From Escherichia coli (GTDB lineage: Bacteria; Pseudomonadota; Gammaproteobacteria; Enterobacterales; Enterobacteriaceae), in assembly GCF_022846255.1 (NCBI RefSeq), contig NZ_AP025682.1: a stretch of 64,000 bases of DNA. One strand, given 5' to 3'. The notes under the pieces were generated by a model. That model saw nothing but the letters and a program-made list of their open reading frames with translations. It searched no databases and had not been told where the DNA came from. Positions 18,665-64,000 of the stretch are shown piece by piece. The position numbers and the translations under genes are program-made. Position 1 is the first letter of the stretch, and every line of letters starts with the position of its first letter.

Positions 18665-18762
18665 AACCCTCTCCTTTAACCGGGCATAAGGTTACGACTA
18701 ACTGGTTTAAAAATAAAATTGATTATATATTTATAATTAATCTTTATAAGTGGTAAGCGACT

Positions 18763-19848: not shown

Positions 19849-21318
19849 ATGGGTTCCGAAACTAAAACTACAGAAGCGCCGGGCTTACGCCGTGAATTAA
19901 AGGCGCGTCACCTGACGATGATTGCCATTGGCGGTTCCATCGGTACAGGTCTTTTTGTTGCCTCTGGCGCAACGATTTCTCAGGCAGGTCCGGGCGGGGC
20001 ATTGCTCTCGTATATGTTGATTGGCCTGATGGTTTACTTCCTGATGACCAGTCTCGGTGAACTGGCTGCATATATGCCGGTTTCCGGTTCGTTTGCCACT
20101 TACGGTCAGAACTATGTTGAAGAAGGCTTTGGCTTCGCGCTGGGCTGGAACTACTGGTACAACTGGGCGGTGACTATCGCCGTTGACCTGGTTGCAGCTC
20201 AGCTGGTCATGAGCTGGTGGTTCCCGGATACACCGGGCTGGATCTGGAGTGCGCTGTTCCTCGGCGTTATCTTCCTGCTGAACTACATCTCAGTTCGCGG
20301 CTTTGGTGAAGCGGAATACTGGTTCTCACTGATCAAAGTCACGACAGTTATTGTCTTTATCATCGTTGGCGTGCTGATGATTATCGGTATCTTCAAAGGC
20401 GCGCAGCCTGCGGGCTGGAGCAACTGGACAATCGGCGAAGCGCCGTTTGCTGGTGGTTTTGCGGCGATGATCGGCGTAGCTATGATTGTCGGCTTCTCTT
20501 TCCAGGGAACCGAGCTGATCGGTATTGCTGCAGGCGAGTCCGAAGATCCGGCGAAAAACATTCCACGCGCGGTACGTCAGGTGTTCTGGCGAATCCTGTT
20601 GTTCTATGTGTTCGCGATCCTGATTATCAGCCTGATTATTCCGTACACCGATCCGAGCCTGCTGCGTAACGATGTTAAAGACATCAGCGTTAGTCCGTTC
20701 ACCCTGGTGTTCCAGCACGCGGGTCTGCTCTCTGCGGCGGCGGTGATGAATGCAGTTATTCTGACGGCGGTGCTGTCAGCGGGTAACTCCGGTATGTATG
20801 CGTCTACTCGTATGCTGTACACCCTGGCGTGTGACGGTAAAGCGCCGCGCATTTTCGCTAAACTGTCGCGTGGTGGCGTGCCGCGTAATGCGCTGTATGC
20901 GACGACGGTGATTGCCGGTCTGTGCTTCCTGACCTCCATGTTTGGCAACCAGACGGTATACCTGTGGCTGCTGAACACCTCCGGGATGACCGGTTTTATC
21001 GCCTGGCTGGGGATTGCCATTAGCCACTATCGCTTCCGTCGCGGTTACGTATTGCAGGGACACGACATTAACGATCTGCCGTACCGTTCAGGTTTCTTCC
21101 CACTGGGGCCGATCTTCGCATTCATTCTGTGTCTGATTATCACTTTAGGCCAGAACTACGAAGCGTTCCTGAAAGATACCATTGACTGGGGCGGCGTAGC
21201 GGCAACGTATATTGGTATCCCGCTGTTCCTGATTATTTGGTTCGGCTACAAGCTGATTAAAGGAACACACTTCGTACGTTACAGCGAAATGAAGTTCCCG
21301 CAGAACGATAAGAAATAA
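19849..21318 (+). CDS. lysP: Lysine-specific permease (APC family)
   Basis: 489-aa ORF, 12-TM amino-acid permease, recognised sequence. Confidence 0.93.
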   Translation: MGSETKTTEAPGLRRELKARHLTMIAIGGSIGTGLFVASGATISQAGPGGALLSYMLIGLMVYFLMTSLGELAAYMPVSGSFATYGQNYVEEGFGFALGWNYWYNWAVTIAVDLVAAQLVMSWWFPDTPGWIWSALFLGVIFLLNYISVRGFGEAEYWFSLIKVTTVIVFIIVGVLMIIGIFKGAQPAGWSNWTIGEAPFAGGFAAMIGVAMIVGFSFQGTELIGIAAGESEDPAKNIPRAVRQVFWRILLFYVFAILIISLIIPYTDPSLLRNDVKDISVSPFTLVFQHAGLLSAAAVMNAVILTAVLSAGNSGMYASTRMLYTLACDGKAPRIFAKLSRGGVPRNALYATTVIAGLCFLTSMFGNQTVYLWLLNTSGMTGFIAWLGIAISHYRFRRGYVLQGHDINDLPYRSGFFPLGPIFAFILCLIITLGQNYEAFLKDTIDWGGVAATYIGIPLFLIIWFGYKLIKGTHFVRYSEMKFPQNDKK

Positions 21319-21339
21319 GTTTCCTCCCTTCCTTGCTAA

Positions 21340-21366
21340 GCCCTCTCAACCGAGAGGGCTTTTTCA
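21340..21366 (+). terminator. Rho-independent terminator of lysP
   Basis: GCCCTCTC-aacc-GAGAGGGC followed by TTTTTCAATT. Confidence 0.8.
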
Positions 21367-21394
21367 ATTCCATTTCCCTGACAAATCATGCGGA

Positions 21395-21445
21395 TATAAA
21401 ATTTATCATTTGGATTGATAATTGTTATCGTTTGCATTATCGTTA
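21395..21445. promoter_or_regulatory. Fur box cluster in the cirA promoter
   Basis: GATAATTGTTATC at 21417-21429 plus adjacent ATTTATCATT and GCATTATCG hexamer arrays matching the Fur consensus GATAATGATAATCATTATC. Confidence 0.7.
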
Positions 21446-21610
21446 CGCCGCAATCAAAAAAGGCTGACAAATCAGAGGCTGTGCCGGCTTTCTGGGATGA
21501 TCACCTGCATACAAATAAGTCCACCGCGATGCTGCCGTACGCAAGGGGACGTGAAGAAGATGTGAGCGATAACCCATTTTATTTTCGTAGTTACCTCATG
21601 GAGATATGGA

Positions 21611-23602
21611 ATGTTTAGGTTGAACCCTTTCGTACGGGTCGGGCTGTGTTTGTCCGCTATTTCTTGTGCATGGCCTGTGTTAGCGGTCGATGATGATGGC
21701 GAAACGATGGTTGTCACTGCATCTTCCGTTGAACAAAACCTTAAAGATGCTCCCGCCAGTATTAGCGTCATTACCCAGGAAGACCTGCAGCGAAAACCGG
21801 TACAGAATCTGAAGGATGTCCTCAAAGAAGTGCCTGGCGTACAACTGACGAACGAAGGGGATAACCGTAAGGGCGTTAGTATTCGTGGTCTGGACAGCAG
21901 CTACACCCTGATTCTCGTCGACGGTAAACGCGTTAACTCCCGCAATGCCGTCTTCCGCCACAATGATTTCGATCTGAACTGGATCCCGGTCGATTCCATC
22001 GAACGTATTGAAGTGGTCCGTGGCCCGATGTCGTCGCTGTACGGTTCCGATGCGCTCGGCGGTGTAGTGAATATCATCACCAAAAAAATCGGTCAGAAAT
22101 GGTCGGGCACCGTTACCGTCGATACCACCGTTCAGGAACATCGCGATCGCGGTGATACCTATAACGGTCAATTCTTTACCAGCGGACCATTAATTGACGG
22201 CGTGCTGGGAATGAAAGCTTACGGCAGCCTGGCAAAACGTGAAAAGGATGACCCGCAAAACTCAACGACCACCGATACCGGAGAAACGCCGCGTATTGAA
22301 GGATTCTCCAGCCGCGACGGCAATGTCGAATTTGCCTGGACACCGAATCAAAATCACGATTTTACTGCCGGATACGGTTTCGACCGTCAGGATCGTGATT
22401 CCGACTCGCTGGACAAAAACCGCCTGGAACGCCAGAACTACTCCGTCAGCCATAATGGGCGTTGGGATTACGGCACCAGCGAACTGAAATACTACGGTGA
22501 GAAAGTCGAGAACAAAAACCCTGGCAACAGCAGCCCGATAACTTCCGAAAGCAATACGGTCGACGGCAAATACACGTTGCCGCTGACGGCGATTAATCAG
22601 TTTCTCACGGTTGGCGGTGAATGGCGTCACGACAAACTTAGCGATGCGGTGAACCTGACCGGGGGAACCAGCTCCAAAACGTCTGCCAGCCAGTACGCGC
22701 TGTTTGTGGAAGATGAATGGCGGATCTTCGAGCCGCTGGCGCTGACGACCGGCGTGCGTATGGACGATCACGAAACCTACGGTGAACACTGGAGTCCGCG
22801 TGCCTACCTGGTTTATAACGCCACCGACACCGTAACGGTGAAAGGGGGCTGGGCGACGGCATTTAAAGCCCCTTCTCTGTTGCAACTTAGCCCTGACTGG
22901 ACGAGCAATTCCTGCCGTGGCGCATGTAAGATTGTGGGTAGCCCGGATCTGAAACCAGAAACCAGCGAAAGTTGGGAGCTGGGGCTTTACTACATGGGTG
23001 AAGAAGGCTGGCTGGAAGGGGTTGAATCCAGCGTTACCGTTTTCCGTAACGATGTGAAAGATCGTATCAGCATTAGCCGTACGTCTGACGTCAATGCTGC
23101 ACCGGGCTACCAAAACTTTGTCGGTTTTGAGACGGGCGCTAACGGACGGCGCATACCGGTATTTAGCTACTACAACGTTAACAAAGCTCGTATTCAGGGC
23201 GTGGAAACCGAACTGAAAATTCCGTTCAACGATGAATGGAAACTGTCGATCAACTACACCTACAACGATGGTCGTGATGTCAGCAACGGCGAAAACAAAC
23301 CGCTATCCGATCTGCCGTTCCATACTGCTAACGGTACGCTGGACTGGAAACCGCTGGCGCTGGAAGACTGGTCATTCTATGTTTCTGGTCACTATACCGG
23401 GCAGAAACGCGCCGACAGCGCGACGGCTAAAACACCGGGCGGTTATACCATCTGGAATACCGGCGCGGCCTGGCAGGTGACTAAAGACGTCAAACTGCGC
23501 GCAGGCGTGCTGAACCTTGGCGACAAGGATCTCAGTCGTGACGACTACAGCTATAACGAAGACGGACGTCGTTACTTTATGGCAGTGGATTATCGCTTCT
23601 GA
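21611..23602 (+). CDS. cirA: TonB-dependent outer-membrane receptor for catecholate siderophores / colicin Ia-Ib receptor
   Basis: 663-aa ORF with signal peptide, TonB box (ETMVVTAS), and a C-terminal beta-barrel ending in aromatic F. Confidence 0.93.
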
Positions 23603-24503: not shown

Positions 24504-24727
24504 TCATCATACCGTTTATTCAATGTGCTGTGAGTAACTTTCACTTCCGTATTTGCATAACGATGTTTTAACATCTGCTGATGAAAGGCAGCGGCAATTA
24601 CAATAATTATCGCTGTGAATACTGGATTATGTGCGCCGCCTCACGCACAATAATCAGACTGTAAATCAGCTTAATAACTTTGCCCCCACGCAGGGCGGAG
24701 GCGTCACACCTGCAGGAGAAATCATAA

Positions 24728-34455: not shown

Positions 34456-34540
34456 AATAGCTGCGGTTCAGAATGTGATATCCGCAGCTTATTGAGTGAA
34501 GTAATAATTATTCTCAATAATTAACAGAAAAGGGAAAATA

Positions 34541-39639: not shown

Positions 39640-41076
39640 ATGAATCGTGATTCCTTTTATCCCGCCATCGCCTGTTTTCCGCTGTTACTGATGCTGGCCG
39701 GGTGTGCGCCTATGCATGAAACCCGCCAGGCGTTAAGCCAGCAAACGCCCGCTGCACAAGTTGACACCGCATTACCCACGGCGCTGAAAAATGGTTGGCC
39801 AGACAGCCAATGGTGGCTGGAGTATCACGATAATCAACTCACTTCCTTAATTAACAATGCACTACAGAACGCACCGGATATGCAGGTGGCTGAACAGCGC
39901 ATTCAGCTAGCTGAAGCCCAGGCGAAGGCAATTGCTACTCAGGATGGTCCGCAGATCGACTTTTCTGCGGATATGGAGCGGCAAAAAATGTCGGCAGAAG
40001 GCTTAATGGGGCCGTTTGCTCTGAACGATCCGGCCGCAGGTACGACCGGTCCGTGGTACACCAACGGAACTTTTGGCTTAACGGCGGGCTGGCATCTCGA
40101 TATCTGGGGAAAGAATCGGGCGGAGGTTACTGCCCGCCTGGGTACGGTTAAAGCACGGGCGGCGGAACGCGAGCAAACCCGCCAATTGCTGGCTGGCAGC
40201 GTAGCCCGCCTGTACTGGGAGTGGCAAACCCAGGCGGCGTTAAACACGGTCTTGCAGCAAATAGAAAAAGAGCAGAACACCATTATCGCGACCGATCGCC
40301 AGCTATATCAGAACGGGATTACTTCTTCAGTTGAAGGTGTGGAAACCGATATTAATGCCAGCAAAACCCGGCAGCAGCTCAACGATGTCGCGGGGAAAAT
40401 GAAAATTATTGAGGCACGGTTAAGCGCACTTACAAATAACCAGACAAAGTCATTGAAGCTTAAACCGGTCGCGTTGCCGAAAGTGGCAAGCCAGCTTCCT
40501 GATGAACTGGGGTACTCCTTACTGGCCCGGCGGGCAGATTTGCAGGCGGCGCACTGGTACGTTGAGTCATCGCTAAGCACCATTGATGCGGCAAAAGCGG
40601 CATTTTATCCTGACATCAACCTGATGGCCTTCCTGCAACAGGATGCGTTGCACTTAAGCGATCTGTTCCGTCATTCCGCGCAGCAAATGGGCGTTACGGC
40701 AGGCCTGACGCTACCCATTTTCGATAGTGGTCGTCTTAACGCCAATCTCGATATCGCAAAAGCCGAAAGCAACTTGTCTATCGCCAGCTACAACAAAGCG
40801 GTGGTTGAAGCGGTGAATGACGTGGCGCGGGCAGCCAGTCAGGTTCAGACACTTGCGGAGAAAAACCAGCATCAGGCGCAAATTGAGCGCGATGCCTTGC
40901 GTGTGGTAGGTCTTGCGCAGGCGCGCTTTAACGCGGGCATCATTGCTGGTTCCCGCGTCAGCGAAGCCAGAATCCCGGCGCTGCGTGAGCGGGCCAATGG
41001 CCTGTTATTGCAAGGGCAGTGGCTGGATGCTTCCATTCAACTCACTGGTGCGTTGGGCGGGGGTTACAAACGCTGA
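39640..41076 (+). CDS. mdtQ: Outer-membrane efflux lipoprotein (OMF/TolC-like, NodT family); appears intact here
   Basis: 478 aa from ATG 39640; lipobox LLMLAGC; no internal stop or frameshift in this sequence. Confidence 0.8.
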   Translation: MNRDSFYPAIACFPLLLMLAGCAPMHETRQALSQQTPAAQVDTALPTALKNGWPDSQWWLEYHDNQLTSLINNALQNAPDMQVAEQRIQLAEAQAKAIATQDGPQIDFSADMERQKMSAEGLMGPFALNDPAAGTTGPWYTNGTFGLTAGWHLDIWGKNRAEVTARLGTVKARAAEREQTRQLLAGSVARLYWEWQTQAALNTVLQQIEKEQNTIIATDRQLYQNGITSSVEGVETDINASKTRQQLNDVAGKMKIIEARLSALTNNQTKSLKLKPVALPKVASQLPDELGYSLLARRADLQAAHWYVESSLSTIDAAKAAFYPDINLMAFLQQDALHLSDLFRHSAQQMGVTAGLTLPIFDSGRLNANLDIAKAESNLSIASYNKAVVEAVNDVARAASQVQTLAEKNQHQAQIERDALRVVGLAQARFNAGIIAGSRVSEARIPALRERANGLLLQGQWLDASIQLTGALGGGYKR

Positions 41077-63892: not shown

Positions 63893-64000
63893 CTATTTTC
63901 AGGCCTAACACCACAGCCTGTGCAACATCGTGTTCCAACGAACGAATTATAACCACGGCTGGACCCCGTTGCAATTAAGATAATGAGATTTATAATCCAG

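Follow-up and report, generated by a model that had tools for sequence, protein, structure and literature searches.

A Fur-box array upstream of cirA in Escherichia coli corresponds to the known Fur operator of the gene

The stretch of DNA analysed here (hereafter the window, 64 kb in length) is Escherichia coli DNA, and the Fur cluster with which we are concerned sits in its lysP-cirA intergenic region. The setting is nearly universal in the species: the 401-nt stretch around the cluster finds a match of at least 95% identity in 5425 of 5426 complete E. coli genomes, each time between lysP and cirA. The open reading frame that had been called cirA from the letters of the window is indeed the annotated cirA of E. 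coli genomes, flanked by lysP on one side and on the other by yeiG, which lies downstream of cirA on the opposite strand; according to the RefSeq annotation of the matching E. coli loci, its product is a TonB-dependent catecholate siderophore receptor and the receptor for colicins Ia/Ib. The features that frame the intergenic region are:

19849-21318, + strand: lysP (ORF list)
21338-21366, + strand: intrinsic terminator of lysP, with a 10-bp GC-rich stem, a 4-nt loop and a T-run (terminator scan)
21611-23602, + strand: cirA coding sequence, 663 amino acids (ORF list and RefSeq annotation of matching E. coli loci)

The terminator insulates cirA transcription from lysP, and in the alignment with other genera its hairpin is kept with compensatory changes in the stem (CCCTCTC/GAGAGGG versus CCCGCTC/GAGCGGG). 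As for the coding sequence, the cirA gene of E. coli 118UI (L001) is 12 nt, or 4 codons, shorter than the 663-codon gene of the window, an in-frame coding length polymorphism.

The interval 21395-21445 (TATAAAATTTATCATTTGGATTGATAATTGTTATCGTTTGCATTATCGTTA), which has an A+T content of 78%, lies 166-216 nt 5' of the cirA ATG at 21611 and contains four hexamers of the GATAAT/ATTATC type:

21402-21407: TTTATC, one mismatch
21417-21422: GATAAT, exact
21424-21429: GTTATC, one mismatch
21436-21441: ATTATC, exact

The middle two form GATAAT-T-GTTATC, a 6-1-6 inverted repeat. This element (GATAATTGTTATC, 21417-21429) was measured at -194 to -182 from the cirA ATG, in agreement with the distance of about 170-200 nt given in the original prediction. 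That prediction had also described the GATAAT/ATTATC hexamers as overlapping, which is correct only in part: the hexamers are present, two of them exact and two with one mismatch, but they do not overlap one another; it is the 19-bp Fur-box registers that overlap, with an offset of 6 bp.

Simple pattern matching gives this interval little prominence. Windows of 51 bp with at least four near-hexamers make up roughly 0.8% of such windows across the 64 kb, the hexamer count alone is unexceptional at cirA, and the densest near-hexamer window is at ~34495, in the yeiS-preT intergenic region; plain counting did not pick out the cirA site. For the classical 19-bp Fur box, GATAATGATAATCATTATC, no 19-mer with three or fewer mismatches occurs anywhere in the 64-kb window, and the local best 19-mer agrees with this consensus at 13-14 of 19 positions. 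With consensus agreement at this level and ordinary hexamer counts, a Fur call made from the sequence by itself would be of moderate strength. Because the 19-bp consensus is too idealised, we turned instead to a Fur weight matrix, for which 12 footprinted or confirmed E. coli sites other than cir were used (fepA-fes, fepD-entS, fepB, entC, fur, tonB, sodA, fecA, fecI, fhuF1, fhuF2 and ryhB; coordinates from Chen et al. 2007, PMC2189734, and sequences taken from K-12). Scored with this cir-excluded matrix, the region upstream of cirA contains:

21392-21413: weak distal Fur-like matches, including TTTATC, 6.5 to 6.8 bits (1.5 to 3.3 bits with the K-12 allele)
21411-21429: 19-bp Fur box, 11.7 bits
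21417-21435: 19-bp Fur box, the strongest of the three, 15.5 bits
21423-21441: 19-bp Fur box, 9.6 bits
21411-21441: core Fur-box cluster, comprising these three overlapping 19-bp sites with 6-bp phasing over 31 bp and holding GATAAT-T-GTTATC

The 15.5-bit box ranks third among single matrix sites in the 64 kb, and the summed three-site cluster score of 36.8 is the highest of the whole window, the runner-up being 25.0 at 34497. A cluster score of 36.8 was never reached in 100 dinucleotide shuffles of the whole window; it was reached by 0.06% of shuffles of the intergenic region and by 0.14% of composition-keeping shuffles of the 51-bp stretch.

The array can be compared directly with a physically mapped operator. 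Chen et al. 2007 (PMC2189734), drawing on Griggs & Konisky 1989, place the DNase I protection of cir by Fur at the 43 bp from 2244957 to 2244999 of NC_000913.2; the same paper gives 3 sites in a 31-bp cluster, the strongest of them centred on 2244980 (-189 relative to the gene start), and sites phased by 6 bp are the arrangement that it describes for footprinted Fur sites. Alignment of the window with K-12, allowing for an indel in the leader, places this footprint as follows:

about 21404-21446, centre 21423: region equivalent to the published 43-bp Fur footprint

The footprint centre is the middle of GATAAT-T-GTTATC, and the three matrix sites over 31 bp found here agree with the 3 sites in 31 bp of Chen et al. 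2007. Across the footprint the window and K-12 differ at a single base, T21406, at the footprint edge, and across the intergenic region there are only three differences: T for A at 21406, G for T at ~21484 and, at ~21512, a 1-nt indel next to a substitution. The interval 21395-21445 overlaps the mapped experimental footprint almost exactly. It has likewise been published that Fur represses the transcription of cirA and that it binds upstream of the gene in vivo (PMC4676285; PMC2588501). The proposal that a Fur box cluster serves as an iron-regulation site in the cirA promoter is thereby borne out, since the region coincides with the K-12 footprint and both Fur repression and in vivo binding are on record (PMC4676285); 21395-21445 is the already known Fur operator of cirA, and its identity is established knowledge rather than hypothesis. 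In this comparison the sequence anatomy, the statistical excess, the identity with K-12, the overlap with promoter elements, the cross-genus conservation and the complementarity to RyhB were computed here, and physical Fur binding, the dependence on Fur and iron, the start sites and the sRNA effects are derived from the literature, the footprint data having been obtained for the K-12 allele.

The position of the array relative to the promoters is informative as to mechanism. The cirA leader of K-12 is 173 nt long from promoter P1 and 160 nt long from P2, as given by Guillier & Gottesman 2008 (PMC2588501), who cite the original promoter mapping. These lengths, together with the K-12 alignment and a promoter scan, place the following elements in the window, the hexamer assignments being derived from the leader lengths and carrying an uncertainty of 1-2 nt:

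21403-21408, + strand: probable P1 -35 hexamer TTATCA, where K-12 and most genera have TTAACA, separated by 17 bp from the P1 -10; placed from the published leader length
21426-21431, + strand: probable P1 -10 hexamer TATCGT; placed from its position relative to the P1 start at ~21439
21415-21420, + strand: probable P2 -35 hexamer TTGATA; promoter scan (TTGATA, 17 nt, TATCGT; 9 of 12 matches)
21438-21443, + strand: probable P2 -10 hexamer TATCGT; promoter scan, consistent with the P2 start at ~21452
21439-21610, + strand: cirA 5' leader, for which the K-12 lengths and the alignment give 172 nt when transcription begins at P1 (~21439) and 159 nt when it begins at P2 (~21452), to within 1-2 nt in either case

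A TTAACAA block at the P1 -35 is conserved in the alignment. Of these elements, both -10 hexamers, the P2 -35 and the P1 start lie under the Fur cluster, and the mapped footprint adds the P1 -35; judged from the published leader lengths, the P1 and P2 start sites fall at, or just 3' of, the cluster. Since the footprint thus lies over the -35 and -10 elements of P1 and P2 and over the P1 start, the mechanism of repression is promoter occlusion of the classical kind.

Conservation of the array was followed upstream of cirA orthologues. A species-representative genome collection was scanned once with a degenerate form of the CirA plug motif GDNRKGV.IRG, which retrieved 49 loci, and the 42 with a recognisable cirA start preceded by 300 nt or more of sequence were kept; these come from Enterobacterales of about 20 genera. 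A best Fur site of at least 11.8 bits together with a cluster score of at least 27 is present in 40 of the 42 upstream regions, including those of Escherichia, Salmonella, Klebsiella, Raoultella, Enterobacter, Kluyvera, Leclercia, Lelliottia, Pseudescherichia, Hafnia and Pragia; a site and cluster at this threshold are missing from the other two, those of Entomohabitans and Edaphovirga. In an alignment of 17 sequences the conserved non-coding blocks are the terminator hairpin, the promoter/Fur block, TGTGAGC and the ribosome-binding block ACCTCATGGAG. Among the non-coding blocks of the intergenic region, conservation is highest in ATTGATAAT...TTATC, where both ATTGATAAT and TTATC are nearly invariant across genera; the TGTGAGC of the RyhB site is conserved across genera, ACCTCATGGAG is nearly invariant, and the central part of the leader varies, some of it being deleted in other genera. 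The cirA promoters of Salmonella, Klebsiella, Enterobacter and others share with that of E. coli the elements ATTGATAAT-N-TTATC...TTATC, TGTGAGC and ACCTCATGGAG, whereas they differ from it in box strength, which is 23-24 bits in Klebsiella and Raoultella compared to 15.5 bits in E. coli, one of the weaker examples. The distance from the Fur box to the cirA ATG ranges from -55 to -213 across orthologues.

Leader length itself varies in a recurrent way. At several loci of Enterobacter, Leclercia and Pseudescherichia (L011-L013, L018, L019, L022, L039, L044, L046, L047, L050, L053 and L056) the Fur cluster lies ~100-145 nt from the cirA ATG and ~60-90 nt of the leader middle is absent; these short-leader loci keep the RyhB target TGTGAGC and the ribosome-binding block.

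Given the length of the cirA leader, the original prediction had allowed for additional post-transcriptional control, and such control is in fact already documented, by way of OmrA/B (PMC2588501), RyhB (PMC4666370) and Hfq (PMC9988348). The leader elements concerned are:

21559-21570, + strand: RyhB pairing site GAUGUGAGCGAU, -52 to -41 from the ATG, which pairs with RyhB nt 41-52 by 12 bp of uninterrupted complementarity
21576-21601, + strand: OmrA/B pairing region, -35 to -10 (PMC2588501), overlapping the ribosome-binding region
21600-21603, + strand: Shine-Dalgarno sequence GGAG, 7 nt before the ATG; read from the sequence and invariant in the alignment

Wang et al. 2015 (PMC4666370, Fig. 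S3) reported, with compensatory mutations, that RyhB activates cirA translation through pairing in the 5' UTR. The mutagenic oligo JW5381, which converts TGTG to GTAT and for which a compensatory ryhB mutant served as counterpart (PMC4666370 supplement), allows this result to be located in the window: its TGTG maps to 21561-21564, inside the 12-bp RyhB complementarity. Hfq acts on cis elements of the cirA mRNA (PMC9988348), and pairing genetics have shown that OmrA/B pair at -35 to -10 of the cirA mRNA and repress it (Guillier & Gottesman 2008, PMC2588501); consistent with the latter, UACCUC within -19 to -10 is complementary to GAGGUA of the OmrA/B 5' end. The published OmrA/B site at -35 to -10 was not recovered by RNAduplex with 25-nt 5' segments of the sRNAs, shuffles being as good in 7% of cases for OmrA and 17% for OmrB. 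Full-length sRNAs in RNAduplex yielded meaningless long duplexes, and it was a contiguous-pairing search that recovered the RyhB site. An Rfam scan of 21250-21750 detected no known RNA family in the leader, the sub-threshold matches falling on the lysP terminator only.

Three further candidates in the leader deserve mention. A CRP site was rejected, since the only good match, TGTGAGCGATAACCCA at 21561-21576, coincides in part with the RyhB pairing site and is more readily accounted for as the target of the RyhB seed. A conserved upstream ORF was also rejected, since the mechanically called ORFs lie in the middle part of the leader, where conservation is poor and indels are frequent. Finally, a Fur-like 19-mer, GATAACCCATTTTATTTTC (21568-21586, 13.0 bits), is found inside the leader just 5' of the ribosome-binding site; it lies outside the published footprint, its conservation is limited to Escherichia and Salmonella, and it is more likely merely an A/U-rich stretch of leader.

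The best explanation of the hexamers is that they belong to the Fur operator of E. coli cirA, an Fe2+-Fur array on tandem promoters with an sRNA-controlled leader below; we put the probability of this reading at roughly 0.97. It could be argued instead that an A+T-rich promoter (-35, -10 and UP-like elements) gives rise to such hexamers of itself, as a chance likeness to Fur boxes with no repressor function, and the 78% A+T content, the ~0.8% of 51-bp windows that hold at least four near-hexamers and a consensus match of only 13-14 of 19 would all fit this view. Chance likeness does not, however, account for a cluster score that shuffles of the same 51 bp reach in only 0.14% of cases, nor for three sites with the 6-bp phasing described for footprinted Fur sites (PMC2189734); the cross-genus conservation is moreover specific to Fur-box positions, where the sites are often stronger (23 bits in Klebsiella), and both a footprint, as cited in PMC2189734, and in vivo binding (PMC4676285) have been published. 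We regard this account as exceedingly improbable.

A different possibility is that the interval is mainly the operator of some other regulator that binds A+T-rich DNA (H-NS or CRP), or of a Fur-family paralogue such as Zur, with Fur playing a minor part. Nucleoid proteins bind A+T-rich DNA in general, activation of cir by cAMP-CRP has been reported, and the CRP-like sequence in the leader has 2 mismatches in 10 core positions. That sequence, however, lies ~110 nt downstream of the start sites and outside 21395-21445. Its conservation is confined to the TGTGAGC half, a pattern that suits a RyhB seed rather than a CRP site; inside 21395-21445 no candidate does better than 4 mismatches in the 10 CRP core positions, and the footprint is assigned to Fur in the literature, as relayed in PMC2189734. 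A main operator for another regulator is highly improbable as well.

Under the Fur reading, when iron is sufficient Fe2+-Fur dimers occupy the three overlapping boxes at 21411-21441 and protect about 21404-21446, and Fur so placed on the sigma-70 hexamers of P1 and P2 and on the P1 start excludes RNA polymerase. When iron is scarce, Fur is off the DNA, and transcription of cirA yields an mRNA whose leader measures about 159 or 172 nt. RyhB, itself Fur-repressed, pairs with this leader at 21559-21570 and activates translation jointly with Hfq, which also acts on the mRNA, and OmrA/B pair at the ribosome-binding region, 21576-21601, and repress cirA. The components of this scheme at cirA (the Fur operator, P1/P2, RyhB with Hfq, and OmrA/B) have all been described previously.

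The operator of the window is like the K-12 cir Fur operator, at the same locus, in its position relative to cirA, in its three-site 31-bp cluster and in its overlap with P1 and P2; it differs in having T rather than A at 21406, by which the P1 -35 changes from TTAACA to TTATCA, and in a leader that is 1 nt shorter. The E. coli arrays at fepA-fes, entC, fhuF, fecI, ryhB and other iron-uptake promoters likewise consist of overlapping 19-bp GATAAT-like sites with 6-bp spacing on core promoter elements. Compared with other E. coli Fur arrays, the cirA site stands at an unusual distance from the start codon (about -190), owing to the long leader, and its best box, at 15.5 bits, is weaker than 8 of the 12 training sites (18-22 bits).

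What is regulated at this site is the level of an outer-membrane receptor for catecholate iron uptake that is exploited by colicins Ia/Ib. The value of the case is as a positive control: a reading of raw sequence put a classical operator within ~10 bp of the experimental footprint, and a simple matrix-cluster test with a cross-genus comparison recovers the cirA Fur site.

Several other places in the window resemble Fur sites. The best single match to the matrix is GATAATGAGATTTATAATC at 63979-63997, between yehK and yehL, with 18.2 bits and agreement at 15 of the 19 consensus positions; in K-12 it precedes yehL by ~240 nt. This site stands alone, with no phased cluster (cluster score 20.4). 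Isolated matches, again with no phased cluster, occur at 18709-18727 in the yeiE-yeiH intergenic region (15.0 bits), at 24593-24611 in the folE-yeiG intergenic region (14.7 bits) and at 40395-40413 inside the mdtQ pseudogene (16.0 bits). The second-best Fur-like cluster, at 34497-34527 in the yeiS-preT (yeiT) intergenic region, scores 25.0 and coincides with the densest run of GATAAT-like hexamers; it corresponds to the 'yeiT -163' cluster, which in Chen et al. 2007 (PMC2189734) is a prediction only.

The sole local oddity at the cirA site, and the sole new question that it raises, is the promoter allele T21406. Where K-12 and most other genera have A, the window has T, which turns the conserved P1 -35 TTAACA into TTATCA and creates the Fur-like hexamer TTTATC, raising the distal matrix scores from 1.5-3.3 to 6.5-6.8 bits. 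By exact-word search this allele is a minor one: of 5426 complete E. coli genomes, 150 carry it and 4887 carry the K-12 allele. By weakening the P1 -35 and adding a distal Fur-like hexamer, T21406 might lower cirA expression in its lineage or place it under tighter iron repression, an outcome that we consider rather unlikely. Such an effect of the allele, if true, could shift sensitivity to colicins Ia/Ib and likewise to those siderophore-conjugated antibiotics for which CirA is the route of entry.
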